Shown: in pieces, positions 1-24,904 of the stretch
How positions within the stretch are numbered: the stretch's first letter is position 1
How the letters are laid out: the number at the start of each line of letters is the position of its first letter
Source of the DNA: Elusimicrobiota bacterium
GTDB lineage: Bacteria; Elusimicrobiota; Elusimicrobia; UBA1565; JACRDR01
Length of the DNA stretch: 24,931 nt
Assembly (NCBI GenBank): GCA_041694815.1
Contig: JBGFSC010000031.1
Coordinates: forward strand, 1 to 24,931
Direction: 5' to 3'
The notes under the pieces: model-generated
Databases searched by the model: none
What the model saw: the letters and a program-made list of their open reading frames with translations, nothing else
What the model was told of the DNA's origin: nothing
Translations under genes and position numbers: made by a program

Positions 1-134
1 AGTTGATGCAGGACTGTGTTATAATGAGGCATAGGCGTCCTCCGTCGGTAGATTGCTTCCTCGCAGAAACATTCTACCAATGACGAAGGGCGCCTACGCT
101 ATTTTAACCGGACAGGAGTGGACCCAAATATCAT

Positions 135-644
135 TTGAAGCCTCCGGCCCCGCGCCAATACGAGGAGCAATGGCGGCTAAAGGCCGGGACCATCGCCCAG
201 AATGCCGCCAAGTGGGCGCTGACGCTCTCCATCCTCGCGATTCTGGCCACCCAGGCCGGCTCCGTCATTCTGGGCTTCTTGATGACCGAGCCCTCCCTCG
301 CCATGTCCACGAAGCCCGAAGACATCAACTTGATGATCAACCTTATCCACTGGCGACGCTCGCTTATGATCGTGACCGCGTTGAGCATGGCGACCGGAAC
401 CTTGATGACGATTCCCGCCGTGACGCCTCATGGGAAAAAATGGGTTCGTGAACTCGGCGCGAGAATCGGAGCTTGGTTCGGTAAATGGATGGACGCCGCC
501 GCGCATCGAAGCTACATCCGCGCCAAGAGAGCGGAATGGAAAAAGACCTTGTCGACCGCCGCCAAGCCCGTCAGCTCCGCTTCGAGCACTAACGATGGCT
601 CCGCGGAGGACGAGCCAAGCGCGGAAGAAAGGTTTAAGTTATGA
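135..644 (+). CDS. RFK-tail small membrane protein family, paralog 1. Shortest module: no signal peptide, starts at the conserved GPKYH / PPxPxQYE block. Possibly a 5'-decayed copy. TTG start in the track
   Basis: Shares with paralogs 2, 4 and 5 the motifs PAPRQYEEQWRLKAG, two hydrophobic helices, GARIGAWFGK, AHRSYIRAKRAEWKKTLS and a C-terminal SAEERFKL. The in-frame upstream peptide DRSGPKYH matches ALGPKYH of paralog 2 but is cut by a TAA at 105-107. The stop overlaps the ATG of paralog 2 (ATGA). Confidence 0.45.
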   Translation: MKPPAPRQYEEQWRLKAGTIAQNAAKWALTLSILAILATQAGSVILGFLMTEPSLAMSTKPEDINLMINLIHWRRSLMIVTALSMATGTLMTIPAVTPHGKKWVRELGARIGAWFGKWMDAAAHRSYIRAKRAEWKKTLSTAAKPVSSASSTNDGSAEDEPSAEERFKL

Positions 645-1402
645 AAGCGGGAACTAAGTTCCTGGTGGCCTTCTTATGCGCCGCCTTCGGTCTGAGTTCG
701 GCTTACAGCGAGACGGGCGCGCTGGAATGGGAGAAGATGAACTCTGGCCTGCTCTTTGAGCGCAGCGCCAGAACGGAATCCGCTGTTTCCGCGGTAGCGG
801 CGCTCGAGCTGCCATCAACGGTTATCCGACTGAACTCCGACGCACTCGGGCCAAAGTACCACATCGCGCCCCCCGAACCAAAACAATATGAAAAGTCCTG
901 GCGCTTTAAGGGAGAAAGCATAGCGGAGAAGGTGACCAAAATCGGGCTTAAAACCAGCATCGTGGGCTTTGTGGCCTCCTTGATCGCCTTTAACGTCTCA
1001 CCCGTTCTAGTGGATGCCCTCCTATACTCTAGGGATTTTTTTCAAATGCAGCTGGCGGTTACGTTAATACAATTACGGCCGATTCTGCTTCTATCAACCT
1101 GCATGGGCCTTCTAGGAGGCCTCTTTTGGGCCCTGTTCACGCTGACCCCTCCGGGCCGCGATTTTGTGAAAAGCGCAGGAGGCCGGCTCGGCGCCTGGCT
1201 TGGAAGGCGCAAGGATATCAATGCGCATAAAACTTACTTCCGGACGAAAAAAGAGGAATGGACTGAAATGCTGTCAGCTGGACGTGCAAGGCAATTGACC
1301 ACGACGGACCAGGAACTTTTACCTACCGCATCCCCGCCCTCGACAGCGAAGCCCAAGGGGAAAGCTTGGGAGTCCGCAGAGGAAAGATTCAAACTCCGAT
1401 GA
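641..1402 (+). CDS. RFK-tail small membrane protein family, paralog 2. Signal peptide, two TM helices, C-terminal ESAEERFKLR
   Basis: ATG start. N-terminal signal peptide MKAGTKFLVAFLCAAFGLSSAYS. Motifs GLLFE, PPEPKQYEKSWRFKGE, two TM segments, GGRLGAWLGRRKD, AHKTYFRTKKEEWTEMLS, acidic tail, ERFKL near the C-terminus. The stop TGA overlaps the ATG of paralog 3. Confidence 0.7.
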   Translation: MKAGTKFLVAFLCAAFGLSSAYSETGALEWEKMNSGLLFERSARTESAVSAVAALELPSTVIRLNSDALGPKYHIAPPEPKQYEKSWRFKGESIAEKVTKIGLKTSIVGFVASLIAFNVSPVLVDALLYSRDFFQMQLAVTLIQLRPILLLSTCMGLLGGLFWALFTLTPPGRDFVKSAGGRLGAWLGRRKDINAHKTYFRTKKEEWTEMLSAGRARQLTTTDQELLPTASPPSTAKPKGKAWESAEERFKLR

Positions 1403-1824
1403 ACGCTGTTTCGCATTCACCGTTCTCGTCCATCTTAATTGCTTCCACATTCTGTCCTGTAAAGCACGTTTCAGCCGAGGCTGCCCTGGAGATGCTCAAG
1501 CATGACTCCGGCATCCTTTTTGAGCAGACCACCGAACGACGGACGGACTCCCCGACCTGGAACACGCCGACGCTTTCGCTGCCTTACGTTGAAGCAGCGG
1601 CTCTGACGAACAACGTTTTCTCGAAACTACAGGGCCCGCGCCAGGACCCATCGGTCGGCTCTGCAATCGGACAGTCCTTAGGCCAAAAAAAGGACCAACG
1701 CGAATACGCTGCTTACCTAGAAGCAAAAAGACAGGAGTGGTCCCACAGCTTAACGAAACCCGCGAATTTAGAATCCCCCGATCCTGAAAGCGAGGATTCC
1801 GCCCAGGACCGGTTTAAACTTTAA
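1399..1824 (+). CDS. RFK-tail family, paralog 3. Soluble variant lacking the PPxPK/TM core but retaining the LFE box, the Y..K..EW helix and C-terminal DSAQDRFKL
   Basis: ATG at 1399 overlaps the upstream stop (ATGA). Hydrophobic N-terminus MNAVSHSPFSSILIASTFCPV. Motifs SGILFEQ, EYAAYLEAKRQEWSHSL and a C-terminal DRFKL. The track ORF begins 33 nt earlier in the same frame. Confidence 0.6.
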   Translation: MNAVSHSPFSSILIASTFCPVKHVSAEAALEMLKHDSGILFEQTTERRTDSPTWNTPTLSLPYVEAAALTNNVFSKLQGPRQDPSVGSAIGQSLGQKKDQREYAAYLEAKRQEWSHSLTKPANLESPDPESEDSAQDRFKL

Positions 1825-1826
1825 CG

Positions 1827-2426
1827 ATGCCCCGGTCCTTTTTCCTTATGTCATTATGCATCTTACCTGTGTTCAGTGAGGATGCGTCGAGTCCCGAAAA
1901 GCATAAGGCGGGATCGGGCGCGCTTTTCGGCGAGACGGTCCCTACGCCTGCGGCATCCGCCATCACTCGTGAGGAACCGAAGGTGCACCCCCTCGCCCTG
2001 GCGGCGGGGGCGGGAAACCCTGCGGGATCGGTTCCGGAACCTCCTCAACCGAAGCAATTCGAACAAGCTTGGGAGCAAAAAGGCATGCGGCGCGGTCAGC
2101 TCATCGGTTCCGCCATCTTCTTTCCGACGATATTCGGCATGCTTATATCGATGGCCGGAGCCTTTGCGACTTCAAGGGTCGAATTCGTCATAGCGATCCA
2201 ATTCCTCGCGCTGGCCTTCCTTTCCGGATTTATCCCTCTTATGATCGCTCCCTTGATCGGAAGGCGCCTGGGAAAGGCGAAGGATACCCGCGAGTACCGG
2301 CGCTATTTGGAGGAACGCCTGGCATCGTGGTCGCGGCCCCCGAAGGCCGAGGACGGCCCCAAAACCGACGGAACGCAAACGGACGGTGACGATGCCGATT
2401 CCGCCCAGGAGCGATTTAAATTTTGA
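1827..2426 (+). CDS. RFK-tail small membrane protein family, paralog 4
   Basis: Signal peptide MPRSFFLMSLCILPVFS. Motifs SPEKHKAGSGALFGE, PPQPKQFEQAWEQKG, two TM helices, GRRLGKAKDTREYRRYLEERLASW, acidic tail and C-terminal DSAQERFKF. Starts 2 nt after the paralog 3 stop. Confidence 0.7.
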   Translation: MPRSFFLMSLCILPVFSEDASSPEKHKAGSGALFGETVPTPAASAITREEPKVHPLALAAGAGNPAGSVPEPPQPKQFEQAWEQKGMRRGQLIGSAIFFPTIFGMLISMAGAFATSRVEFVIAIQFLALAFLSGFIPLMIAPLIGRRLGKAKDTREYRRYLEERLASWSRPPKAEDGPKTDGTQTDGDDADSAQERFKF

Positions 2427-3064
2427 AAATAATCTTACTGCTACTGACGATGACGTTTCGGCTCCCTTGCTTCGCCGATAGGCTCAGCCCGGAGAAGCTT
2501 AAAATGGAATCGGGCGTTCTTTTCGGCGAGAAGATATGGACGCAAGATGCCTCCGTTAAGGTGACGGCCCCACCGGCCGGCATCGCCGCTCTGGCCGCCG
2601 GACCGGATTCCCCTTCGAAAATGATCGCCGCGCCACCGCAACCGAAACGATTTGAGGAGGCCTGGAGCAAGAAAGGCGCGCGTATCGGGGACGGGATCGG
2701 CTCATGGATGGGCCTCGTCATGCTGGGCGTGTCGCTCGGAGTCACGGGGTTTGCTTTTTATATCGGCGGTCCCACGCCAGTCCTTGAAGGGAACCCGGGA
2801 GCGCCTTTCCTCACCTTAGGCTGTACTTTAATGATAAGCAGCCTGTTCTGCCTCGGCCTCGTCTCCGCGCTACTGCGATTTGCCGGAGGCGATCTTGGGA
2901 AATTATCAGGGAAGTGGAGAGACCATCAGGAGCACAAAGCTTATTTAAAAGCAAAACAGGCCGAGTGGATGCAACGCCTGAAGGAAAAACCAGAGGACAA
3001 CCCACAGGAACGCACCATAGAGGCATCGGAGTCGGACACCGCGCAAAATAGGTTTAAGTTCTAA
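2423..3064 (+). CDS. RFK-tail small membrane protein family, paralog 5. TTG start overlapping the upstream TGA
   Basis: The TTG start yields a good signal peptide MKIILLLLTMTFRLPCFA; the internal ATG would lose it. Motifs SPEKLKMESGVLFGE, PPQPKRFEEAWSKKG, two TM helices, EHKAYLKAKQAEWMQRL, acidic tail and C-terminal DTAQNRFKF. Confidence 0.65.
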   Translation: MKIILLLLTMTFRLPCFADRLSPEKLKMESGVLFGEKIWTQDASVKVTAPPAGIAALAAGPDSPSKMIAAPPQPKRFEEAWSKKGARIGDGIGSWMGLVMLGVSLGVTGFAFYIGGPTPVLEGNPGAPFLTLGCTLMISSLFCLGLVSALLRFAGGDLGKLSGKWRDHQEHKAYLKAKQAEWMQRLKEKPEDNPQERTIEASESDTAQNRFKF

Positions 3065-3751
3065 ATGAAAGCCTGGATAATCGCGTTGCTTACCAATGCC
3101 GTTCTCGCCTCCTCTTATCCTCTAGTCGACGCCGATATTACCGCCTTCGATAGAACGATTACGGAAATGGAGCGCCGCTTTAGCGGTAGGCCCAAAAATG
3201 CTCATGACAAAAAATGGGTCAAGGCCAAGTTATCGCATATGTTTAAAGTCGACCAGCATCTTCGAACATTCGCGATGGAAACGCCTTTAAAGAAATCATA
3301 TTCCGGCGAAGAAAAACGGTACTTCTGGGAGAAATTAGGGCCTCGTTGGAAAATGATCGATCATCGAAACACGACGGACTTAAAGGAGCTGCTGGCGGTC
3401 TACGGATGGATTAAGATTAGCGAATTCGGGGAGGAAGCCGACAATGCGGCCTGGCTGCTGGTCCAACACGCCGATGACGATCTCGCTTTTCAAAAAGAGA
3501 CGCTTATAAAGTTAGCGGCGCTCTATCCCGCGGGTGAAACAAAGCCATCCCACTATGCCTATCTCTACGATAGAGTGGCCATTCATGAAAATCGGCCGCA
3601 GCTATACGGCACTCAAGGGCGATGCGTCGCCGGAACTTGGGAGCCTTTCCCGATCGACAGTCCCGGGGAAGTCGATGAACGCCGCAAGGCGATGGGGCTG
3701 GAACCGCTTTTAGAATATAAGCAACGCTTTCAGGGCGCCTGCGATAGCTAG
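3065..3751 (+). CDS. Secreted hypothetical protein, last gene of the paralog operon
   Basis: ATG is immediately after the TAA of paralog 5. Signal peptide MKAWIIALLTNAVLASS. Contains blocks such as AWLLVQHADDDLAFQKE and YAYLYDRVAIHENRPQLYGTQ; I could not assign a family. Its stop overlaps the convergent mazF stop. Confidence 0.7.
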   Translation: MKAWIIALLTNAVLASSYPLVDADITAFDRTITEMERRFSGRPKNAHDKKWVKAKLSHMFKVDQHLRTFAMETPLKKSYSGEEKRYFWEKLGPRWKMIDHRNTTDLKELLAVYGWIKISEFGEEADNAAWLLVQHADDDLAFQKETLIKLAALYPAGETKPSHYAYLYDRVAIHENRPQLYGTQGRCVAGTWEPFPIDSPGEVDERRKAMGLEPLLEYKQRFQGACDS

Positions 3752-4098
3752 ACGCCGCGCGGATTCAACAACACCAGGAGCTTCTCGATGACTTCCCCTA
3801 AGATCGCCTCTGAAACCCTGCAACAAAACCGGGAATCCCTGGCTTGCCAATCCAAGCTCCTGACCTGATCGGCGAGCGCGACGCCGGAAACCCTCAAGCC
3901 CGGAGGCAATGAAACCTCAAAAGGGTAACCCTTCACCTGGCTTGTAATCGGGCAAAAGATCGCAAGTCCGACCTTTCGATTATACCCTTCGGGAGAAAGC
4001 GTCAGAGCCGGCCTATGGCCAGCCTGCTCGTGCCCCGCTTGAGAAGCAAAGGAAAGCCAAACGACATCGCCGCGTTTCGGGCAATACGGCTGCGGCAT
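3748..4098 (-). CDS. mazF: MazF/PemK-family endoribonuclease toxin
   Basis: The 116 aa product aligns along its length with E. coli MazF: GDVVWLSF..GHEQAGHRPALTLSP, GLAIFCPITSQVKGYPFEV, GVALADQVRSLDWQAR. Confidence 0.85.
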   Translation of the reverse strand: MPQPYCPKRGDVVWLSFASQAGHEQAGHRPALTLSPEGYNRKVGLAIFCPITSQVKGYPFEVSLPPGLRVSGVALADQVRSLDWQARDSRFCCRVSEAILGEVIEKLLVLLNPRGV

Positions 4099-4341
4099 TC
4101 ACCAGGTCTCTTGTCCGGCCCTGCGACCCCAATCCTGTTCGTCGTGACGATTCTTCCGGGTGACGCCTTTGAGCATTCTTGAAAGCGAGTACCTTCGTTC
4201 ACCCTTTGGTTTTACGACGATCTTTCCCTCCACGACGGCCACCTCGACCACCGTGCCCTGATGCAGGCGCACATCTTTGGCAAGCGAGCTTGGGATACGG
4301 AGGGCCAGGCTATTTCCCCATCTTTGAACGGTCGCATTCAT
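4099..4341 (-). CDS. mazE: MazE antitoxin (AbrB/SpoVT swapped-hairpin family)
   Basis: 80 aa. VQRWGNSLALRIPSSLAKDV...GKIVVKP...DWG..W mirrors E. coli MazE (VKRWGNSPAVRIP...IDWGEP..VW). Lies directly upstream of mazF on the same strand. Confidence 0.8.
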   Translation of the reverse strand: MNATVQRWGNSLALRIPSSLAKDVRLHQGTVVEVAVVEGKIVVKPKGERRYSLSRMLKGVTRKNRHDEQDWGRRAGQETW

Positions 4342-4369
4342 GGCAGGCTCCCCAGGAGTATCTACAATG

Positions 4370-4397
4370 AGTATACCTCATTATCCGCAGATGTCAA
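4370..4397 (-). promoter_or_regulatory. Putative mazEF promoter: TTGACA-N16-TATACT with GAGTAT direct repeats
   Basis: The minus strand reads cTCTTGACAtctgcggataatgaggTATACTcattgtagatactcctGGGGAGcctgccATG. The -35 is perfect, the -10 near consensus, and a GGGGAG SD lies 7 nt before the mazE ATG. Confidence 0.5.
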
Positions 4398-4427
4398 GAG
4401 CTTGATTCCTTAACGAGCCCCAACTCG

Positions 4428-4853
4428 TCAACCGCCACCCTTAAGCGGCAAAGCCCTAAGTCGAACAAGCTTCCCCAAATGCTCGAATTCCGGATCCTTA
4501 TGCACCAGCGTGGCGCCTAGTCGCTCAGCGGTCGCAGCGACCCAAGCATCGGCTACGGAAAGCTTATGCCCGGCCTTTATTCGCGCGGCCGCAAGCCCTA
4601 ATGGCTCGTCGCTCTCAACGGTCTCAACGGGAAGCTGCTTGAGCTCGAGTATGCCTTGGCGAGCCGCCGTCTCGCCCTGCTCCTGCTCGAGAACATAGGC
4701 GAACTCCATGATCGACATGAAACTAATAAAGACCCGCCCGTTCTTCCCTTCTCGCCTAAGGATCAACTCCACTTCGGCGGCGCCGGGCTCGTTCTCTTTC
4801 AGGCAGAGCAAAGCCGACGTATCCAGAACGAAGGTTTCAACGGCGGGAGGCAT
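4428..4853 (-). CDS. vapC: PIN-domain ribonuclease toxin (VapC-like)
   Basis: 141 aa beginning FVLDTSALL, with acidic PIN residues spaced as in VapC. The start overlaps the upstream small antitoxin gene by 17 nt. Confidence 0.8.
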   Translation of the reverse strand: MPPAVETFVLDTSALLCLKENEPGAAEVELILRREGKNGRVFISFMSIMEFAYVLEQEQGETAARQGILELKQLPVETVESDEPLGLAAARIKAGHKLSVADAWVAATAERLGATLVHKDPEFEHLGKLVRLRALPLKGGG

Positions 4854-5061
4854 CTTCCCTACGGCTAGCCAACAAGGCCTTTGTTAAGCCCTTGGGAGCC
4901 GATCCGCGGAACGCGGAAATAGGGTCTTTGGCTACCGGGAGCACGTAGATCACCTTACCATCCTCCGCCCACTCCAGGCGCTGATGCGCCTTGAGCTTGA
5001 AGCGCTTGCGGATTCGGGCCGGTATCGCCGTCTGTCCCCGCTCGCTGAGTGTAGTCACCAT
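4837..5061 (-). CDS. vapB: AbrB/MazE/SpoVT-type antitoxin (VapB-like)
   Basis: 74 aa. SERGQTAIPARIRKRFKL is a swapped-hairpin DNA-binding N-terminus. Directly precedes and overlaps vapC. Confidence 0.7.
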   Translation of the reverse strand: MVTTLSERGQTAIPARIRKRFKLKAHQRLEWAEDGKVIYVLPVAKDPISAFRGSAPKGLTKALLASRREDASRR

Positions 5062-5067
5062 AAGCCT

Positions 5068-5096
5068 AGTATAACAGTCGTCCGGAACCGCGTCAA
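5068..5096 (-). promoter_or_regulatory. Putative vapBC promoter TTGACG-N17-TATACT; transcript predicted leaderless
   Basis: The minus strand reads ctacTTGACGcggttccggacgactgtTATACTaggcttATG. Only 6 nt separate the -10 from the vapB ATG. Confidence 0.5.
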
Positions 5097-5153
5097 GTAG
5101 TTTTCAATAAATTACATGTAAATAATAAATATTGGCATGCGGGCACAGTGATT

Positions 5154-5205
5154 GCGTTTCTGCGGATTTTACTTCCAACGTTGGAAGTAAAATTAACAGA
5201 AACGC
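5154..5205. repeat. Nested AT-rich palindrome: 26-bp perfect palindrome TTTTACTTCCAACGTTGGAAGTAAAA (5167..5192) flanked by GCGTTTCTG / CAGAAACGC arms
   Basis: Read directly from the sequence. It sits in the AT-rich gap between the small ORF downstream of valS and the vapBC promoter, at the GC-content transition. Confidence 0.6.
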
Positions 5206-5207
5206 AT

Positions 5208-5378
5208 CTAGGCGCAGCGCCCGCAGCCCTGCGGCGGGCAGGAGGGACCCGGCTCAAAATCCTTAGCGCCTCCGCCTTTCTTTAATCCTGGAACCTTGTC
5301 CGAGACCTTGACCACCTTGCCGAGCTTCTTGTCGAAAACATAGGTTCCCGTCGCCTCGTCCTTCGTATTGGTCGCCAT
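5208..5378 (-). CDS. Small hypothetical protein (56 aa) with C-terminal C-x4-C-x2-C motif, coupled to the valS stop
   Basis: Not in the ORF track (under 60 aa). The minus strand reads TGA(valS stop)cGAGGTGGatATG, an SD 5 nt upstream and a 10-nt gap from valS. Translation: MATNTKDEATGTYVFDKKLGKVVKVSDKVPGLKKGGGAKDFEPGPSCPPQGCGRCA. Lys-rich host-like codon usage (AAG, GAC, GTC, CTC), unlike the R/P/G-rich frame artefacts. Confidence 0.45.
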   Translation of the reverse strand: MATNTKDEATGTYVFDKKLGKVVKVSDKVPGLKKGGGAKDFEPGPSCPPQGCGRCA

Positions 5379-5388
5379 ATCCACCTCG

Positions 5389-8085
5389 TCAATTCAAGCT
5401 GCTTAAAATTTCGCGCAGGCGGCTCTGCTTCTGCTCGAAATCGGCCTGGCGGCGGCGTATCGTCTCCACCTCCGCCTGCGGCGCGCGGGAGACGAAGGCC
5501 TCGTTCGACAATTGATTCTTGCACCGGGCCAATTGGGCGTCGATCTCCCGGGCTTCCTTCTCGAGCCTCGCGCGCTCCTTGTCGAAGTCGATCAAGCCCT
5601 CGAGCGGCACGTAGAAGGTCAGGCCCGCCGCCAAGGCCGTCGCGCTGCGCGCGGGCTTGGCCCCTTCGGCCTCCGACAGGCTTTCGAGCCGCGCCAAATA
5701 TTTTAAATAGGGAGCGTGCTCGAGCACAAGCCCCCCGCGGTCCTTGGGGCCCTCGAAATGCGCCTGGATCTTGAGTCCCGGCGGCACGTTCAGCTGCGAA
5801 CGCAGGGTGCGCAGGGCCACGACCGCTTCCATCACCGCCTCCATCCTGGAAACGTTCTCGCCGTCCTGCCAATCCCTTTCCAAAACGGGGCCGCCAGACT
5901 GGATGAGGAAATCATGCGACTGGCCGGCGAAGGCCTTAAGGGAGGCGTATAACTCCTCCGTGATGAACGGCATGAAGGGGTGCAGCATCTTGAGCGTTCC
6001 CACCAGGACCTCGACCAGGATGGCGCGGGCGGCTTCCTTTTCCTCCCCATCAATGCCGGTCAGCCGAATCTTGGCCAACTCCACGTACCAGTCGCAAAAG
6101 CTGTCCCAAAGGAAGCCGTAAAGCGTATCGGCGGCCGCGGCGAATTCATGCGCGTCCATGTTCTCGCGCACCCGGGCGAGCATACCCTGGTACTGCGCCA
6201 AGACCCATCGATCAGCCAACTCCAGGCAGCAGTGGGACAAAGACTCCAGGCGATAACCGCCTGCCGGCGGCGCCGCCGGCAGATTCATGAGCACGAAGCG
6301 CGTCGAGTTCCAGAGCTTGTTGGCGAAATTGCGCGGGCCGGTGATGGAGTCCTCGGCGAAGGGGATGTCCCGGCCCGGATGGGCCTGCGACAGCAGCGAG
6401 AATCGGAAAGCGTCGGTGCCGTATTTGTCCATCATCACCAAGGGGTCGACGACGTTGCCGAGAGACTTGGACATCTTCTTTCCGGCCTTGTCGCGCACGA
6501 TGCCATGGATGATCCCCGTCGAGAAGGGAACCCCGCCCATGAGCTCCAACCCCATCATCTGCATGCGCGCGACCCAGAGGTAGAGTATCTCGTAGCCGGT
6601 CACCAGGGCCGAGGTCGGGTAAAAATACTCCAGGTCTTTCGTCTTCTCCGGCCAGCCGAACACCGAAAAGGGCCACAGGGCCGAGGAGAACCACGTGTCG
6701 AGCACGTCGGGGTCCTGAAGCAGCGAGGTCCCGCCGCAATCGGGGCATCGTTGGGGCTTTTCCGCGCCGGGGATCCCTTTCAGGTCCGCGGCCTGATGGA
6801 AATCCTTCTCGCTTATTCCAGGATTGCACGAGACGCAATACCAGACGGGAATGCGATGCCCCCACCAGATCTGACGCGAGATGCACCAGTCGCGGATCTC
6901 CTGTAGCCATCGGCGGTACGGGTTCCTCCAGCTCTCCGGAAAAAGCCTGAAATCGCCGCGATCCAGGGCGCGGACGGCCGGCTCGGCCAGCTTGGGCATC
7001 TTCACGAACCACTGCCACGACACGAGCGGCTCGATGGCCTGGTTGCAGCGGTAGCAGACGCCGACGGCGTGTGGGTGCTCCTCGGTCTTCTCGAGGAATC
7101 CCCCGTCGCGCAAGTCCGCGGCCACCTTGTCGCGGGCCTGCTCGCGGGAAAGGCCTGAGTATCCTTCTCCGGCGTCCGCGGTCATCTTCCCGTCGGGACC
7201 GATCACCTTGATGGAAGGCAGCGAGTGCCGCTGCCCGATCTCGAAGTCATTGGGGTCATGGGCCGGGGTCACCTTCACCGCGCCGGTCCCGAAGGAGGGG
7301 TCCACGTGCTCGTCCGCCTTGACGGGGATCGTTCGCCCCGTCAGCGGGAGCTTAAGCGTCTTGCCGACCAGGGCGGCATAGCGAGAATCCTTGGGATTGA
7401 CCGCCACCGCCGTGTCGCCGAGCATCGTCTCGGGACGGGTCGTGGCCACCACCAGTCCCCGGCCGCCGTCGGCCGACGGATAATGGATATGCCAGAGCTT
7501 CCCTTTGCGCTCCTCGTATTCCACCTCGATGTCGGAAAGCGCGGTGCCGCAGCGCACGCACCAGTTGACCATGCGCTCGCCCCGGTAGATGAGCCCCTTT
7601 TCCCAAAGATGCTTGAAGGCGGCCAATACCGCCCGCGCGCGGGGCTCGTCCATGGTGAAGGCCTCGCGATCCCAGTCCAGGGCGCAGCCGAGCCGCTCGA
7701 GCTGCCCCAGGATCGTGCTCTTGCAGGCCAGGGTCCACTCGCGCATGCGCTCCAAAAATTTCTCCCGGCCCAGAGCCTGCCTCGAGCCCTTCTCCGCGCG
7801 CAGCTGCTTCTCCATGACGTTCTGCGTCGCGATGCCGCCGTGGTCGGTGCCCGGGACCCAACAGACCGCATCGCCGTTTAACCGCCGCCAGCGGACCATC
7901 AAGTCCTGGAGGGCGTTGTTGAGGGCATGGCCGATATGCAGCGCGCCCGTCACGTTCGGCGGAGGGATGACCACGACGAAGGGCCGCGCCTCGGCGGAGG
8001 GCTCGGCGTGGAAGAGCCGCGCCCGCCTCCAGGCCGAGACCCATTTCGCCTCGACGGGCCCGGGATTGTAAACCTTCTCTAGCAT
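5389..8085 (-). CDS. valS: Valine--tRNA ligase
   Basis: N-terminus MLEKVYNPGPVEAKW. Class I HIGH motif PPPNVTGALHIGHAL. KMSKS motif (GKKMSKSLGN). Editing domain. C-terminal coiled coil (EAREIDAQLARCKNQLSNEAFVSRAP). The track ORF continues 38 aa upstream to 8199 as R/P-rich text; the ATG at 8085 was chosen. Confidence 0.9.
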   Translation of the reverse strand: MLEKVYNPGPVEAKWVSAWRRARLFHAEPSAEARPFVVVIPPPNVTGALHIGHALNNALQDLMVRWRRLNGDAVCWVPGTDHGGIATQNVMEKQLRAEKGSRQALGREKFLERMREWTLACKSTILGQLERLGCALDWDREAFTMDEPRARAVLAAFKHLWEKGLIYRGERMVNWCVRCGTALSDIEVEYEERKGKLWHIHYPSADGGRGLVVATTRPETMLGDTAVAVNPKDSRYAALVGKTLKLPLTGRTIPVKADEHVDPSFGTGAVKVTPAHDPNDFEIGQRHSLPSIKVIGPDGKMTADAGEGYSGLSREQARDKVAADLRDGGFLEKTEEHPHAVGVCYRCNQAIEPLVSWQWFVKMPKLAEPAVRALDRGDFRLFPESWRNPYRRWLQEIRDWCISRQIWWGHRIPVWYCVSCNPGISEKDFHQAADLKGIPGAEKPQRCPDCGGTSLLQDPDVLDTWFSSALWPFSVFGWPEKTKDLEYFYPTSALVTGYEILYLWVARMQMMGLELMGGVPFSTGIIHGIVRDKAGKKMSKSLGNVVDPLVMMDKYGTDAFRFSLLSQAHPGRDIPFAEDSITGPRNFANKLWNSTRFVLMNLPAAPPAGGYRLESLSHCCLELADRWVLAQYQGMLARVRENMDAHEFAAAADTLYGFLWDSFCDWYVELAKIRLTGIDGEEKEAARAILVEVLVGTLKMLHPFMPFITEELYASLKAFAGQSHDFLIQSGGPVLERDWQDGENVSRMEAVMEAVVALRTLRSQLNVPPGLKIQAHFEGPKDRGGLVLEHAPYLKYLARLESLSEAEGAKPARSATALAAGLTFYVPLEGLIDFDKERARLEKEAREIDAQLARCKNQLSNEAFVSRAPQAEVETIRRRQADFEQKQSRLREILSSLN

Positions 8086-11470: not shown

Positions 11471-11545
11471 CGCGAAATACTCGCGAGGAACCTCGAACTC
11501 GTCGCGCGAAGCGCGACGAGTCACGCGCCCGAGGCGCGTAAAAGA
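11471..11545. repeat. Intergenic mosaic palindromic repeat, locus 1: modules D, AACCTCGAA, hairpin A, hairpin C
   Basis: D is CGCGAAATACTCGCGA at 11471..11486, also at 15160..15175. Hairpin A is CTCGTCGCGC-GAA-GCGCGACGAG at 11498..11520, identical at 24787..24809. Hairpin C is ACGCGCC-CGA-GGCGCGT at 11523..11539, present inverted at 24678..24694. Confidence 0.7.
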
Positions 11546-11558
11546 CCGTTTATACATT

Positions 11559-11567
11559 TGGTATAAT
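11559..11567 (+). promoter_or_regulatory. Extended -10 element TGGTATAAT upstream of ispG; no consensus -35
   Basis: TGnTATAAT lies 9 nt before the ispG ATG at 11576, implying a very short or leaderless 5' end. The same element type precedes the dehydrogenase operon. Confidence 0.35.
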
Positions 11568-11575
11568 TGTTTTTT

Positions 11576-13513
11576 ATGCCAACCGAAACCCTCCCATCGA
11601 CGGCCCCGCCGGCCTACTGCTCCGACCCCTTCGGCTACGCCCGGCGCAAAACCCGCGTCGTCCGCGTCGGCAAGGTGCCCGTCGGCGGGAACAACCCCAT
11701 TCGCGTCCAGTCGATGACGACGACCGATACCCTCGACGTCGAGGCGACCGTGGCCCAAACCCTGAAAATGGTGGAGGCCGGCTGCGAAATCGTCCGGATC
11801 ACCGCGCCCACGGTGGGCGACGCGCGGGCGCTCGGCAAGATCAAGGAGCGGCTACTGCGCTTGGGCTGCGACGTTCCGCTCGTCGCCGACATCCATTTCT
11901 CCCCCCAGGCCGCGATGGAAGCCGCCGAGTACGTCGAGAAGGTCCGCATCAACCCCGGCAATTTCGTCGATTCCAAGCGCTTCGCGGTCAAGGAGTACAG
12001 CGACGAGCAGTACGCCGAGGAACTCTCCCGCATCGAGGCGGCCTTCACCCCCCTCGTGGAGAAGCTCAAGCGCCTGGGCCGCGCCCTGAGGATCGGCACC
12101 AACCACGGCTCGCTCTCCGACCGCATCATGAACCGCTACGGCGACACCCCCCTGGGGATGGTCGAGTCGGCCTTGGAGTACGTGCGCATCTGCGAGAAGA
12201 ACGGCTACCGGGACATCATCCTCTCGATGAAGGCCTCCAACCCCAAGGTGATGGTCGCGGCCTACCGCCTGCTCGCCGCGCGGATGGAGGAGCTCGGCAT
12301 GGATTATCCCTTCCATCTGGGCGTGACCGAGGCGGGCGACGGGGAGGACGGGCGGATTAAATCCGCCATCGGCATCGGCAGTCTGCTCGCAGACGGGATC
12401 GGGGATACCATACGGGTTTCGCTGACCGAGGACCCGGAATACGAAATCCCCGTTTGTTATGCTCTCGCCCGGCCGTTCCAACCCACGTCTTTGAGGCAAG
12501 TCACGCGCCCAAAGCGCGTAAATACCCTCCCATACGATCCGTTTTATTATGAGCGCCGTAAGAGCCGTCCCGTGTCCATCGGCCCCTTCCCCGCCGGTGA
12601 CGCGCAGCTCGTGCGCGTCGTCACGGCGTTCAAGGAGAATCCCTCCGCCGAACAGATACTCGCCTTCTTGGAGGAGCAGCTCCGCGCCGCCAAAAACCTC
12701 GAGCCCGAGATCATCGAGTGGCGGGTCCGCGGGGGTTCGGATCTCGAAGCCCTCTCGGCGCTGCGCGCACGGCTGCGCGCCGAAACATCCCGGCTCGCCT
12801 TCGCCGCCCGTTTCGAGCCGCCCGCCCAGCCGCTCGCGCGGGGCGATTTCGACGCGTTGATCCTGGAGGCGCCATCGGCCGAGGAGTTGATGTCCCTGCG
12901 CGCGCGGATGGAGCCGGAAACGCCCGTCCTGCTTTCGCTGCGGGGCGAGGACGCCGGCGCGCTGCTCAAGGAATACAGGCTCCTGGCCTCCAGGCTCAAG
13001 GCCGCCGGCTCCAAGGAGCTCATCCTTTTGCGGGCTCCGGTCCAGGCGGAGGAGCAAGAGCAGGTGCTGGCCTCCTCGGTGCTCATCGGCAGCCTGTTGT
13101 GCGACGGCATCGGCGACTGCGTGCAGGTGGACTCCGCCCTTAAGCCGGCGCGCAACCTGGAGCTCGTCTACAACATACTGCAGGCCGCCGGCGTGCGCGT
13201 CACGAAGACCGAGTTCGTTTCCTGCCCCTCCTGCGGGCGAACCCTGTTCAACCTGCAGACCACCACCGAGCGGATCAAATCGAAGACGGGGCACTTAAAG
13301 GGCGTCAAGATCGCCATCATGGGATGCATCGTCAACGGCCCCGGCGAGATGGCCGACGCCGATTTCGGCTATGTCGGGGGCGCCCCGGACAAGATCAATC
13401 TCTACGTTGGCAAGGAATGCGTGCGCAAGGGTATCCCCGCCGCCGTCGCCGACGAGGCCCTCATCGAGCTCATCAAGTCCCACGGCAAGTGGGTAGAGCC
13501 GCCCTCCGCGTAG
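11576..13513 (+). CDS. ispG: 4-hydroxy-3-methylbut-2-enyl diphosphate synthase IspG/GcpE, long form with central insert domain
   Basis: N-terminal TIM-barrel block VGKVPVGGNNPIRVQSMTTTDT...NPGNF. C-terminal 4Fe-4S block FVSCPSCGRTLFNLQ...IMGCIVNGPGE. About 270 extra residues between them. The track start is a TTG 9 nt upstream. Confidence 0.9.
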   Translation: MPTETLPSTAPPAYCSDPFGYARRKTRVVRVGKVPVGGNNPIRVQSMTTTDTLDVEATVAQTLKMVEAGCEIVRITAPTVGDARALGKIKERLLRLGCDVPLVADIHFSPQAAMEAAEYVEKVRINPGNFVDSKRFAVKEYSDEQYAEELSRIEAAFTPLVEKLKRLGRALRIGTNHGSLSDRIMNRYGDTPLGMVESALEYVRICEKNGYRDIILSMKASNPKVMVAAYRLLAARMEELGMDYPFHLGVTEAGDGEDGRIKSAIGIGSLLADGIGDTIRVSLTEDPEYEIPVCYALARPFQPTSLRQVTRPKRVNTLPYDPFYYERRKSRPVSIGPFPAGDAQLVRVVTAFKENPSAEQILAFLEEQLRAAKNLEPEIIEWRVRGGSDLEALSALRARLRAETSRLAFAARFEPPAQPLARGDFDALILEAPSAEELMSLRARMEPETPVLLSLRGEDAGALLKEYRLLASRLKAAGSKELILLRAPVQAEEQEQVLASSVLIGSLLCDGIGDCVQVDSALKPARNLELVYNILQAAGVRVTKTEFVSCPSCGRTLFNLQTTTERIKSKTGHLKGVKIAIMGCIVNGPGEMADADFGYVGGAPDKINLYVGKECVRKGIPAAVADEALIELIKSHGKWVEPPSA

Positions 13514-13593: not shown

Positions 13594-14460
13594 ATGAAAA
13601 TAGCCCTGGCCGACAGGATTTTTTCGTCCCCGCTCGAACACGACACCTCCCTTCTCTTCCAGTACATCAACCAGAGGCGCCGCCTCAAGGAGACCACCCG
13701 GCAGCTGCAGGAGGCGCGGCAAAACTGCCTCCGCCACCTCGAGGAGTTGCGTCGCTTAAGGCGCCAAGAGACCGCCGAGCGGGAGCTCATCGCCAACGTT
13801 TCCCACGAGTTCCGCACCCCCGTGGCGGCCATCAAGGGCTTCGCCGAGACCCTGCGCCGCGGAGGCCTGCAGGACCGAAAGAACCGGCTTGAGTTCGTCA
13901 AGACCATCGAAAAACACTCCGACTGGCTGGCCAAGCTCATCGAGAACCTGCTCGTGCTCCATTCGCTCAACTCCAAGAGGCGCGTCTTGTCCCGCCAATC
14001 CGTCGATCTCGCCGGATTCCTGTCGAATTTCGCCGATTCCGTCGCGCCCCTGGCCCGGAAAAAGCAGGTCGCCTTAAAAATATCCGCGGCCGAGGGCCTG
14101 CGCGTCGACTGCGACGCGGACCATCTGGAGCGGGCGCTGCAAAGCCTCTACGAAAACGCCCTCAAATTTACGCCCTCCGGCGGGACGGTGGAAATCTCGG
14201 CCCGTGCGTGCGGGCAGCAGGCCCTCGTCGCGGTCCGCGACGAGGGAAGCGGCATCCCCCCTTCCCTGCTGCCCGATTTCTTCAAGCGCCTTTCCAGGTT
14301 CAAGCACCGGCTCGGCAAGGGAACCGGCCTGGGATTGCGCATCGCCAAGTGCGCCGTCGAGGCCAACGGCGGAAGGATTTGGGTGGAGAAAAATCCAGGC
14401 CGTGGCGTTTCATTCGCGTTTACCGTCGGCCTGCCTTCCCCCAAGTCCCGCCGCAAATAA
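13594..14460 (+). CDS. Soluble sensor histidine kinase (HisKA + HATPase_c), no TM or recognizable sensor domain
   Basis: H-box NVSHEFRTPVAAIKGF. N box LYENALKF. G1/G2 boxes RDEGSGIP and GKGTGLGLRIAK. No adjacent response regulator in the window. Confidence 0.8.
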   Translation: MKIALADRIFSSPLEHDTSLLFQYINQRRRLKETTRQLQEARQNCLRHLEELRRLRRQETAERELIANVSHEFRTPVAAIKGFAETLRRGGLQDRKNRLEFVKTIEKHSDWLAKLIENLLVLHSLNSKRRVLSRQSVDLAGFLSNFADSVAPLARKKQVALKISAAEGLRVDCDADHLERALQSLYENALKFTPSGGTVEISARACGQQALVAVRDEGSGIPPSLLPDFFKRLSRFKHRLGKGTGLGLRIAKCAVEANGGRIWVEKNPGRGVSFAFTVGLPSPKSRRK

Positions 14461-14515: not shown

Positions 14516-15157
14516 ATGCTGCGCATGATGCGCGCGGGACCCGCGGCCCTGATGCTTTCGGCCTGTTTCGCCCTACCGGCGGCGGCCACGGACTCGCTGG
14601 ACTCCATCGCAAAAAAAGTTTCCAAGGCCGCGGCGGCGGCCAAGATCCAGCGCGTCGCGGTGCTCCCCTTCGTCTCCTCCAACGGGCACTTCCCCGAGGA
14701 TGGGCTGGTGCTCTCCGAACGACTGGTCAGCGCCCTCGTGGAGCGGCGGCGCCTGCACGTCGTCGAGCGCGAACTGCTCGCAAGCCTGATGAAGGAACAG
14801 TCCCTCGCGCAAACCGGGATCGTCGGCACGGAAGGCCGCCAGGCCATCGGCCGCATATTGTCGGTGGACGCGGTCGTGACCGGATCCTTCATCAGCTTCG
14901 GGCGAAAGGTCAGGGCCAACGCGCGGCTCATCCGCATCGAAAGCGGCGACATCGTTTTCGCCAAGACGTTCGAGCTGCCGATCGACTGGTTCGATCCGGA
15001 GCCCTCCCCGGGGGCCTCGCTGCTCGGGCTAGCCGACAATGATGCCCTTAGCTGCCGGCAGGCGCAGCTGCGGCTGGAAACATTGGAGCGCTCCCTGATC
15101 GATCTTAAGACGCGGTATTGGACATCTCAGCTGGACTTGATCAACGAACGACAGTAG
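14516..15157 (+). CDS. Lipoprotein with a CsgG/LpoB/FlgO-like (TolB-N-like) fold signature
   Basis: Signal peptide with lipobox MLRMMRAGPAALMLSAC. Motifs RVAVLPF, VVERELLASLMKEQSLAQTG, LSVDAVVTGS and ANARLIRIESG. The track ORF is extended 104 codons upstream across the kinase gene; the ATG after the kinase stop was chosen. Confidence 0.6.
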   Translation: MLRMMRAGPAALMLSACFALPAAATDSLDSIAKKVSKAAAAAKIQRVAVLPFVSSNGHFPEDGLVLSERLVSALVERRRLHVVERELLASLMKEQSLAQTGIVGTEGRQAIGRILSVDAVVTGSFISFGRKVRANARLIRIESGDIVFAKTFELPIDWFDPEPSPGASLLGLADNDALSCRQAQLRLETLERSLIDLKTRYWTSQLDLINERQ

Positions 15158-15159
15158 GC

Positions 15160-15227
15160 CGCGAAATACTCGCGAAGATGGTGCCAGGGATTGACTTTCG
15201 CCTAGGCGAAAGTCAATCCCTGGCACC
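15160..15227. repeat. Intergenic mosaic repeat, locus 2: module D, CTCGCGAAGAT linker, 48-bp perfect palindrome B
   Basis: B is GGTGCCAGGGATTGACTTTCGCCTAGGCGAAAGTCAATCCCTGGCACC at 15180..15227, an exact self reverse complement centred on CCTAGG, identical at 24718..24765. The linker recurs inverted at 24766..24776. Confidence 0.75.
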
Positions 15228-15234
15228 GCATATT

Positions 15235-15243
15235 TGCTATAAT
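15235..15243 (+). promoter_or_regulatory. Extended -10 element TGCTATAAT upstream of the dehydrogenase-rib operon
   Basis: TGnTATAAT lies 17 nt before the ATG at 15261, immediately downstream of palindrome B. Confidence 0.35.
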
Positions 15244-15260: not shown

Positions 15261-16292
15261 ATGAAAGCCCTCCTATATGAGGGACCCCAAAAGGTCCAGC
15301 TCAAAGAGGTCCCCATCCCGCAAATCGGCGACGGGGAGGCCCTGGTAGCGGTGGAGGCCTGCGGGCTCTGCGGCACCGACATAGTCAAGATCATGAACGG
15401 CCGCCATCGCCCACCCCTGCCCCTGGGGCACGAGGTCTCCGGCCGCGTGCACGCCCTAGGAAGCGGGGTCAAGGGCTTTAAGGTCGGCGACCGCGTGATG
15501 GTGGCCCATCACGTCCCCTGCGGCCAATGCCATTTCTGCAGGCGCTTGAGCGAGACGATGTGCGTTCAGTTCAAGGAAAGCAATCTAGACCCCGGCGGGT
15601 TCTCGGAGTACGTCCGCGTCTCCGAACGCCACGTGCGGCATACGATGCTCAAGCTGCCCCGGCAGGTGGACTTTTTCGCCGCCTCGCAGGTCGAGCCGCT
15701 GGCCTGCTGCCTGCGCAATCTCCGCCGCCTGGCCCTGGAGCCGGACGATTGGGCCATAGTCGTCGGCTTGGGCTCCATCGGCCTCATGACGGCGCAGCTG
15801 CTGCGCCTGCGGGGGGTCAACGTGCTGGCCTTCGACCTGGAATCGGCCCGGGTGCGGCTCGCCCAGAAATCGGGAATCGAGCACTCCTATACCGGAAAAG
15901 ACGGGCGGTCGGAGGAGCTCGTGAGGACCTTGACGGGGTACCGGGGAGCCGACGCGCTGATCCTGACGGCCGGCACCCCCTCCTTGGCCGCCGAGAGGCT
16001 CTCCTGGATCCGGGACGGCGGGACCTTGAACATCTTCGCCAGCTTCCATCCCGATCCCCATATGCGCCTGGACTTAAACGCCGTCTACCACCGCGAGCTC
16101 AAGATCGTGGCGAGCTATTCGGCCACGCCCCAGGACCTGCGCGAGGCGCTCGAGCTCATCGGCGATAAAGCGATCGATTTGGCTCCCTATACGGGCCATA
16201 CCTTTGGTCTTTCTAGCTTCCCGGAAGCCCTTCGTCGGGCCCGGGGACGCGAGGTACTCAAGGCCATCCTTACCCCGCGGAGCGCGCGATGA
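15261..16292 (+). CDS. Zinc-dependent medium-chain dehydrogenase/reductase (threonine/sorbitol dehydrogenase-like), paralog 1
   Basis: Catalytic zinc ligands in the ACGLCGTDIVKI block and GHEVSG. Structural zinc cluster CGQCHFCRRLSETMC. Rossmann motif VVGLGSIGL. Confidence 0.85.
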   Translation: MKALLYEGPQKVQLKEVPIPQIGDGEALVAVEACGLCGTDIVKIMNGRHRPPLPLGHEVSGRVHALGSGVKGFKVGDRVMVAHHVPCGQCHFCRRLSETMCVQFKESNLDPGGFSEYVRVSERHVRHTMLKLPRQVDFFAASQVEPLACCLRNLRRLALEPDDWAIVVGLGSIGLMTAQLLRLRGVNVLAFDLESARVRLAQKSGIEHSYTGKDGRSEELVRTLTGYRGADALILTAGTPSLAAERLSWIRDGGTLNIFASFHPDPHMRLDLNAVYHRELKIVASYSATPQDLREALELIGDKAIDLAPYTGHTFGLSSFPEALRRARGREVLKAILTPRSAR

Positions 16293-20655: not shown

Positions 20656-20688
20656 GCTACTCGCCCCCCCGCGGGGGGGGCGAGTAGC
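20656..20688 (+). promoter_or_regulatory. 15-bp GC hairpin (GCTACTCGCCCCCCC-GCG-GGGGGGGCGAGTAGC) ending at the nusB ATG, with an upstream competing C7 tract
   Basis: Read directly. The stem is 20656..20670 / 20674..20688, the loop GCG. The 3' arm carries the only SD-like purine run (GGGGGGGCGAG) for nusB, whose ATG is at 20689. A second C7 run at 20649..20655 could pair with the same G8 run. Confidence 0.55.
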
Positions 20689-24672: not shown

Positions 24673-24809
24673 CTTTTACGCGCCTCGGGCGCGTGGCTCG
24701 GCGCGCTTTGTTTTCGCGGTGCCAGGGATTGACTTTCGCCTAGGCGAAAGTCAATCCCTGGCACCATCTTCGCGAGAAACCTCGAACTCGTCGCGCGAAG
24801 CGCGACGAG
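24673..24809. repeat. Intergenic mosaic repeat, locus 3: inverted hairpin C, palindrome B, inverted CTCGCGAAGAT linker, AACCTCGAA, hairpin A
   Basis: CTTTTACGCGCCTCGGGCGCGT at 24673..24694 is the reverse complement of 11523..11544. B is at 24718..24765. ATCTTCGCGAG is at 24766..24776. AACCTCGAA is at 24778..24786. Hairpin A is at 24787..24809. Confidence 0.75.
24689..24714 (+). terminator. Possible weak intrinsic terminator after purH
   Basis: GCGCG-tggctcgg-CGCGC stem directly followed by TTTGTTTT. Short stem with an 8-nt loop, so weak. Confidence 0.3.
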
Positions 24810-24904
24810 TCACGCGCTCAAGACTTATATGATGAATGTCGGCAGCTTCTCTGCGATCCTCGCGGAAAGTAAAATGAGGAAACTAATTCGCAGAGGAGAT
24901 TCAA

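Follow-up and report, generated by a model that had tools for sequence, protein, structure and literature searches.

The 24,931-nucleotide stretch analysed here (the window; contig JBGFSC010000031.1 of assembly GCA_041694815.1, from an Elusimicrobiota bacterium) carries three loci that share short GC-rich palindromic modules, of which at least four, A, B, C and D, can be told apart. We favour, with a probability of roughly 0.6, the reading that these loci belong to a lineage-specific family of selfish, non-autonomous hairpin repeat modules of the kind represented by repetitive extragenic palindromic (REP) sequences and BIMEs, by REPINs or by MITEs, which are miniature transposable elements with inverted repeats. 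The comparisons described below support a dispersed, mosaic and modular family, apparently previously unreported in sequence and of a kind that is already known; its mobility and a mobilising enzyme we infer.

The window was compared with itself by repeat finding and blastn, and the loci were also read directly. All three approaches bear out the sharing of modules A to D that an earlier note on this DNA had proposed. Module A is CTCGTCGCGCGAAGCGCGACGAG, with arms CTCGTCGCGC-GAA-GCGCGACGAG and a total hairpin length of 23-25 nt, and is found at 11498-11520 (locus 1) and 24787-24809 (locus 3); with its flanks, the locus 1 copy matches 24770-24817 at 97.9% identity over 48 nt (E = 3e-18). Module B is a 48-nt perfect palindrome with copies at 15180-15227 and 24718-24765, and its two 24-nt arms, GGTGCCAGGGATTGACTTTCGCCT followed directly by AGGCGAAAGTCAATCCCTGGCACC, are perfectly complementary and constitute terminal inverted repeats. 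The larger B unit, in which B is preceded by CTCGCGAAGAT and followed by GC, is 100% identical over 61 nt between 15169-15229 and 24716-24776, where it is inverted (E = 2e-27). Module C (ACGCGCC-CGA-GGCGCGT plus AAAAG), a 17-nt hairpin plus tail, occupies 11523-11544, and the sequence at 24673-24694 is its exact reverse complement; the inversion of this hairpin between loci 1 and 3 had been described correctly, while its loop, given as three or four nucleotides, is 3 nt in both copies. The C match extends to 36 nt at 94% identity (E = 2e-9). Module D, CGCGAAATACTCGCGA, is 100% identical over 16 nt at 11471-11486 and 15160-15175, and gave two matches at up to two mismatches versus 0.03 expected, while A, B and C at up to three mismatches gave zero chance matches among 100 dinucleotide-preserving shuffles.

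Locus 1 (11471-11544) has the order D, GGAACCTCGAA, A, TC, C and AAAAG, and locus 2 (15160-15229) the order D, AGAT, B and GC. Locus 3 (24673-24817) reads CTTTT, inverted C, GGCTCGGCGCGCTTTGTTTTCGC, B, ATCT, TCGCGAG, AAACCTCGAA, A and TCACGCGC, in which GGCTCGGCGCGCTTTGTTTTCGC is an inverted degenerate A half with a T-rich tail and TCACGCGC is a truncated C. The end of locus 3 lies at about 24817 and not, as previously assigned, at 24809. The features are as follows; the repeat modules at the three loci carry no strand, and the last two rows are promoter context and not repeat.

11471..11486: module D of locus 1, a small hairpin CGCGA-AATAC-TCGCG (mismatch count, folds)
11487..11522: linker GGAACCTCGAA, module A (11-bp stem, GAA loop, 11497-11521) and TC of locus 1 (repeats, blastn, DNA fold z -4.2)
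11523..11544: module C and AAAAG of locus 1, reaching the -35 position of the extended -10 promoter predicted for ispG (repeats, blastn, folds)
12499..12522, plus strand: diverged C-like copy AGTCACGCGCCCAAAGCGCGTAAA within ispG (blastn, shuffles, alignment)
15160..15175: module D of locus 2, beginning 3 nt past the stop codon (15155-15157) of a CsgG-like open reading frame (ORF)
15169..15229: B unit of locus 2, consisting of CTCGCGAAGAT, B (15180-15227) and GC, 6 nt short of the TGCTATAAT belonging to the dehydrogenase-rib operon
24673..24694: inverted C of locus 3 (CTTTT plus ACGCGCC-TCG-GGCGCGT), beginning 12 nt past the purH stop codon
24695..24717: inverted degenerate A half GGCTCGGCGCGC followed by TTTGTTTTCGC at locus 3 (repeats, terminator scan)
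24716..24776: B unit of locus 3, inverted relative to locus 2, with the palindrome at 24718-24765 and a TCGCGAG end (24770-24776) common to the next module
24777..24817: linker AAACCTCGAA, module A (24787-24809) and TCACGCGC, a truncated C left arm, of locus 3 (repeats, blastn, folds)
11559..11567, plus strand: predicted extended -10 promoter TGGTATAAT of ispG (pattern enrichment)
15235..15243, plus strand: predicted extended -10 promoter TGCTATAAT of a dehydrogenase gene with its ATG at 15261 (pattern enrichment)

Modules are thus present in both orientations and in different orders across the loci, with recurring linkers, in agreement with the earlier picture of a shuffled REP-, BIME- or MITE-like mosaic. 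Between modules, CTCGCGAAGAT, GAACCTCGAA and GCGAAAACAAA serve repeatedly as linkers in either orientation, and pieces of the composites are copied as units, for example CTCGCGAAGAT, B, GCGAAAACAAA, A half and C. Short palindromic cores are found at the module joints. At locus 1 the core is CTCGCGAG; loci 2 and 3 have CTCGCGAA or the reverse complement of it, TTCGCGAG. The 3′ arm of D at locus 1 belongs to the 8-nt palindrome CTCGCGAG (11480-11487), which forms a module-switch junction. Since the core is shared at the joints, one reading makes it the end of D, another the beginning of the B unit and a third the beginning of the linker that leads to A. TCGCGA, CCTAGG and GTAG occur in the window in unremarkable numbers.

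Gene callers sometimes extend ORFs through repeats, and for this reason the three loci were translated in six frames, joined as one query and searched against a collection of 5.8 billion proteins. The query matched three proteins on other contigs (34,970, 49,531 and 54,589 bp), here called P0121, P0122 and P0123, all of them NCBI-only, unnamed singletons. The family is therefore not confined to the three loci of the window, and its description as a dispersed one gains by the presence of B, C and a D-like module in ORF calls on these three contigs.

P0121 is a strong match (E = 3e-8). An independent phmmer search of the full library, for which a 49-aa open frame of locus 3 served as query, retrieved it at E = 5e-11; four further matches in this second search were rejected as unrelated tandem-repeat peptides, leaving P0121 as its sole family match. 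The protein starts with ...ETAAFTRLGRVAWHATRAKFGILAKLVPGIDFRLGESQSLAPRKQNATSHAPKARKSS followed by a signal peptide, and its N-terminal 64 residues are a translated composite located 5′ of a secreted-protein gene. This composite consists of inverted C, a diverged A-like segment, a D-like module and B, and then continues in the arrangement of locus 3 (GCGAAAACAAA, A half, C, AAAAG), including the junction of B with the A half. Back-threaded with the closest codons, it allows identity to locus 3 of the window at 33 of 33 nt and at no fewer than 105 of 111 nt, which indicates that the composite itself, not merely a single hairpin, has been copied. A compensatory change in the diverged A-like hairpin was considered and not accepted as evidence, as an 11-bp stem fits the peptide and also 7-14% of control peptides. 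At the protein level (residues 1-82), the sole Met of the called ORF precedes the entire repeat composite, and the signal peptide has a positively charged n-region, KARKSS, that corresponds to translated C plus AAAAG. Two explanations offer themselves, a true start at a non-ATG codon directly past the repeat or a contribution of the repeat to the coding sequence.

In P0122 (E = 0.18), encoded by a binding-protein gene, RKWCQGLTFAWAKVNPWHRY lies 5′ of the signal peptide and represents B together with its flanks, carrying TGG in place of the central TAG. In P0123 (E = 3.4), a membrane protein, the internal segment EWCQGLTFAQAKVNPWHH represents B with the central TAG changed to CAG. P0123 has 16 homologues, all full-length and 33-45% identical, and every named one is from Elusimicrobiota. 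An alignment with 13 of them at the protein level shows residues 337-352 (WCQGLTFAQAKVNPWH) to be a private 16-residue insertion: the distance between two invariant anchors is 61 residues in P0123 and 44-49 in all 13 homologues. The AlphaFold model of P0123 (pLDDT 89, pTM 0.90) places the insert in a helix-helix connection, where confidence dips to 68.

A second copy within a coding region is the C-like sequence AGTCACGCGCCCAAAGCGCGTAAA at 12499-12522, which is in frame within ispG and identical to C plus flanks at 22 of 24 nt (E = 0.015 in all-versus-all self-blastn, with no such match in 100 shuffles). It encodes QVTRPKRVN in a poorly conserved inter-domain linker, and an alignment with seven homologues reveals no length change. 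These two copies, B in P0123 and the C-like one in ispG, are the exceptions to extragenic placement and do away with the idea of a strictly intergenic family. In all, about seven sites are seen on four contigs, and five of these are intergenic or 5′ of genes. The true copy number must exceed this figure, because only copies that are open in the called frame are detectable by a peptide search; canonical B has TAG or TGA in two of three frames, and the window's own loci were not captured by the search. The window proteins and P0121 to P0123 alike are without a contig-index entry, while proteins of other metagenome-assembled genomes (MAGs) are indexed, and no further genome of the collection carries the repeats. 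The most economical interpretation is an origin of all four contigs in one genome or species.

Locus 1 is flanked by divergent genes, a band-7/HflK-like one on the minus strand (ATG at about 11416, with GGAGG before it) and ispG on the plus strand (ATG at 11576), which makes it a divergent promoter region rather than a 3′ end. Locus 2 comes after the CsgG-like ORF and its stop codon and precedes two dehydrogenase genes with ribD, ribE, ribBA and ribH, and locus 3 lies after purH and before the last, cut-off gene. The putative extended -10 promoters noted earlier beside loci 1 and 2 stand out clearly from chance: the pattern TGnTATAAT (TGNTATAAT) occurs three times in the window (17-25, 11559-11567 and 15235-15243) versus 0.11 expected by shuffling. 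All three sites are on the plus strand just 5′ of a gene, and two of them adjoin loci 1 and 2; judging by this pattern, extended -10 promoters seem to be a local rule in the source organism. The distance from the repeat edge to the TG of the extended -10 element is 14 nt at locus 1 and 6 nt at locus 2, so near that the repeats occupy the place of the -35 box, which would be dispensable for promoters of this type. At ispG the ATG at 11576 is only 8 nt past the TATAAT of TGGTATAAT (window 11559-11578), and the mRNA is therefore predicted to be leaderless or nearly so; the program-made ORF list puts the ispG start at TTG 11567, within the promoter.

Hairpin folds are predicted for each of A, B, C and D on both strands, in RNA and in single-stranded DNA alike, with z values of -2.7 to -11. 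The B stem is uninterrupted over 22-23 bp (RNA fold z about -10, DNA fold z -11), the stems of A, C and D have 11, 7 and 5 bp, respectively, and the composites end in inverted C modules. Such very stable hairpins throughout would suit an explanation in which the modules are host cis-acting RNA elements under selection, acting as 3′ stop or protection hairpins or, in the case of the 22-bp B stem, as RNase III sites. Loci 2 and 3 do begin 3 and 12 nt past stop codons, and RNase cutting is known for Correia and ERIC elements (PMC10969869). A single hairpin with a T-run in the family is terminator-like, at 24687-24716 on the plus strand, where 24687-24694 is joined with the degenerate A half. However, A, B, C and D themselves lack the U-tract or T-run of an intrinsic terminator, and the 15 terminator-like sites in the window are no enrichment over the 15.2 expected. 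Locus 1, lying between divergently transcribed genes and upstream of both promoters, is downstream of no gene, which also removes the terminator as the general role that had been suggested. Moreover, the modules are used in both orientations, the P0121 composite is 5′ of a gene, and B is translated in frame within the gene of P0123. We therefore regard selection for a host RNA function as improbable as the origin of the family, and a primary terminator or RNA-stability role as unlikely, because locus 1 is upstream of both neighbours, orientation is not conserved, U-tracts are missing and one copy forms part of a protein. Loci 2 and 3 may have secondary effects, for example through a hairpin 3′ of purH or if RNase III cuts the B stem.

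The distribution of the family was followed in genomes, metagenomes and databases. An exact-pattern search of 185,579 species genomes with the 23-mer of module A gave one match, in a Planctomycetota MAG (JAXMCA010000002.1), which was rejected as a chance GC hairpin with unrelated flanks. There, a 25-nt hairpin identical to A follows a stop codon and lies at the edge of a 661-bp inverted duplication with 96.5% identity (1867-2549 and 4937-5597); the identity with A is probably a coincidence of GC-rich hairpins. A further candidate was the hairpin CCTCGTCGCGGTCCGCGACGAGG in the histidine-kinase gene of the window (14222-14246), which shares 9-nt arms with A and is read as coding sequence and not as a family member; we take its peptide LVAVRDE to resemble the kinase's conserved G1-box region. 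The exact half-site patterns of A and B had no match in JGI metagenomes or in viral contigs, the C pattern had none in viral contigs, and the 161-nt locus 3 composite including B had no blastn match in plasmids or phages. Rfam 15 gave no gathering-level match, and in E-value mode B retrieved just generic miRNA-precursor hairpin models, far below threshold. A full-text literature search returned no paper combining Elusimicrobia with "repetitive extragenic palindromic".

The window is a whole contig of an unannotated MAG from an isolated Elusimicrobiota lineage, and its IspG is 100% identical to a protein known from one NCBI contig of 24,931 bp. The next-best IspG proteins are at most 69% identical to that of the window, and all named ones are from Elusimicrobia or Elusimicrobiota. 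In two of the nearest relatives (GCA_027452025.1 and a second assembly from ENA; IspG identity 68-69%), the ispG neighbourhood is not syntenic and no module or dispersed repeat was found in 30 kb, from which the family looks lineage-specific.

Under the favoured reading of a selfish repeat family, the likeliest history would be that the hairpins are copied in trans by an enzyme whose gene lies in another part of the genome. The candidate is a single-strand transposase of the HUH type, or REP-associated tyrosine transposase (RAYT) type, that recognises DNA hairpins; alternatively, the transposase of a parent insertion sequence (IS) whose ends match the B arms (GGTGCCAGGGATTGAC) could serve. New copies would land preferentially beside or within older copies, and recombination at the palindromic junctions (CTCGCGAG or TCGCGA) would then reshuffle the modules. 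Copies would persist where they do little harm, that is, between genes, against the extended -10 promoters that do not depend on a -35 box and sometimes in frame in variable protein loops. Should transcripts be affected, for example by a protective 3′ hairpin or because RNase III cleaves the 22-bp B stem, this would be incidental.

Several results weigh against this reading. No transposase of any kind is present among the window ORFs and no IS element in the window, and no consistent target-site duplication is seen at the B unit, the flanks being ATA/ATA at locus 2 and TTT/GAA at locus 3. The matches of P0122 and P0123 are weak by alignment statistics alone; for P0122 what stands beside the score is flank matches and provenance, while the weak score of P0123 is offset because the evidence of insertion is independent of it. 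The origin of the four contigs from the same genome is not proven, and with about seven sites seen a high genomic copy number is unproven. Finally, the C-like copy in ispG, being without length change, may be a gene-conversion tract or, less likely, due to chance.

Some of these points are what would be expected if the modules had spread solely by homologous recombination or gene conversion, with template switching between GC-rich hairpins and without a dedicated enzyme. The missing target-site duplications at loci 2 and 3 and the lack of a transposase in the window agree with such a process, and so do the composite junctions common to several loci, the module switches at palindromic cores and the C-like tract of ispG, which swaps sequence at constant length just 1 kb from locus 1. 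Conversion, however, requires prior homology, and the first arrival of modules at unrelated sites on four contigs is left unexplained, as is the clean 16-codon insertion in a membrane-protein loop; the 61 nt at 100% identity across 9.5 kb suggest a recent copy. Recombination alone is accordingly an unlikely source of the whole family, yet a serious competitor where part of the pattern is concerned, above all the ispG tract.

It would be a long shot to read the modules as an undescribed mobile hairpin system of Elusimicrobiota, copied by an enzyme other than a classical RAYT or IS transposase or reshuffled by a site-specific recombinase at the TCGCGA cores, with regular in-frame entry into proteins in the manner of Rickettsia palindromic elements (RPEs), here in a phylum that is free-living and uncultured. 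If true, this system would supply new peptide segments as well as structure close to promoters.

An operator array, in which B or the whole module set is bound by a palindrome-binding regulator or nucleoid protein that controls a regulon, draws on the perfect dyad symmetry of B and on modules that adjoin promoters at loci 1 and 2 and precede genes in the case of P0121 and P0122, and is very improbable all the same: a 48-bp perfect palindrome far exceeds operator size, the neighbours are unrelated housekeeping genes, one copy is within a coding region, and the mosaic order and orientation are unlike regulon sites. An assembly or binning artefact, through chimeric joins or the perfect palindromes that assembly of a MAG contig can generate, is hardly credible for loci that are all internal to the contig with intact genes on either side and whose sequences recur with point differences on three other contigs.

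Three other parts of the window drew our attention. A 33-nt G/C-run hairpin, GCTACTCGCCCCCCCGCGGGGGGGGCGAGTAGC (20656-20688, DNA fold z -5.6), occupies the space between the ribH-like ORF and the next ORF, whose ATG (20689) it abuts and which we take to be nusB-like from its position; the hairpin is unrelated in sequence to modules A to D. An AT-rich, near-perfect palindrome of 54 nt (5153-5206, 89%, DNA fold z -8.8), single-copy in the window, has the 3′ end of the valyl-tRNA synthetase gene on one side and a PIN toxin gene (4428-4853) on the other; the small ORF upstream of the latter may encode an AbrB-type antitoxin, which it resembles. Five tandem ORFs at 641-3751 form a stretch of lower GC content (52-58%), with a similar ...GGTTTAAGTT / GATTTAAA... 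motif at each junction and a Pfam match (DUF6624) in the last ORF alone, and are followed by a MazF toxin gene and the PIN toxin gene at 3748-4853.

Descriptions of small palindromic repeat families come for the most part from Proteobacteria, Firmicutes and cyanobacteria. A modular family with one unit tolerated in a protein would offer a way into the genome dynamics of a phylum represented almost solely by MAGs, and leaves the general picture of such repeats unchanged. Its practical side is that repeats of this kind break assemblies and cause N-termini to be falsely extended when genes are called, P0121 and P0122 being examples, and that they are usable as strain markers.

Among known families, REP sequences and BIMEs were reportedly described by Stern and by Gilson in 1984 in Escherichia coli and other enterobacteria. 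The modules of the window resemble them as short GC-rich palindromes in gene gaps, after stop codons and between operons, arranged in mosaics of alternating orientation with conserved linkers. They differ in having no sequence similarity, in comprising four hairpin types and not variants of one REP, in the 48-nt perfect palindrome of B and in their phylum, Elusimicrobiota, so that the likeness to BIMEs is one of architecture only. RPEs are said to have been reported by Ogata in 2000 from Rickettsia. As with RPEs, a palindrome inserted in frame (B in P0123) adds a loop peptide without destroying the protein (PMC10969869). RPEs, however, measure about 100-150 nt and are mostly intragenic, whereas one clear and one doubtful intragenic case are seen here with an insert of 48 nt, and the host of the present family is free-living and does not have a reduced genome, unlike the host of RPEs. 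No sequence match was found to the REP/BIME, REPIN, BOX/RUP/SPRITE or RPE families.

REPINs are inverted REP doublets that fold into one hairpin (PMC3337134). Confinement of a family to one lineage is common to REPINs (PMC3337134, PMC3116915) and to the present modules, and an inverted doublet folding into one long hairpin may be represented by the copy in P0121, with inverted C modules at both ends around a central hairpin (inverted C, B, C). In the window the doublet ends are incomplete, locus 3 having inverted C on the left and only a truncated C on the right and locus 1 a single C; REPINs also differ in their length of 70-110 nt, imperfect REP ends and variable spacer (PMC3337134, PMC3116915). 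The pneumococcal BOX, RUP and SPRITE elements insert into one another, while RPEs insert in frame (PMC10969869). The modular build of BOX (boxA, boxB, boxC) and the bunching and nesting of distinct small intergenic repeats have their counterpart here (PMC10969869), in an unrelated sequence and host; the pneumococcal elements are longer (about 100 nt or more) and AT-richer. The Correia (NEMIS) MITEs of Neisseria (PMC10969869) are similar in that terminal inverted repeats pair into a long double-stranded RNA, a potential RNase III substrate, and often lie just 5′ of genes; they are 100-150 nt long and have TA target duplications and internal promoters, whereas neither a target duplication nor a promoter was found in B. 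Terminal inverted repeats of the MITE type are present in B, and an in-frame insertion of the RPE type within an intact ORF is present in P0123.

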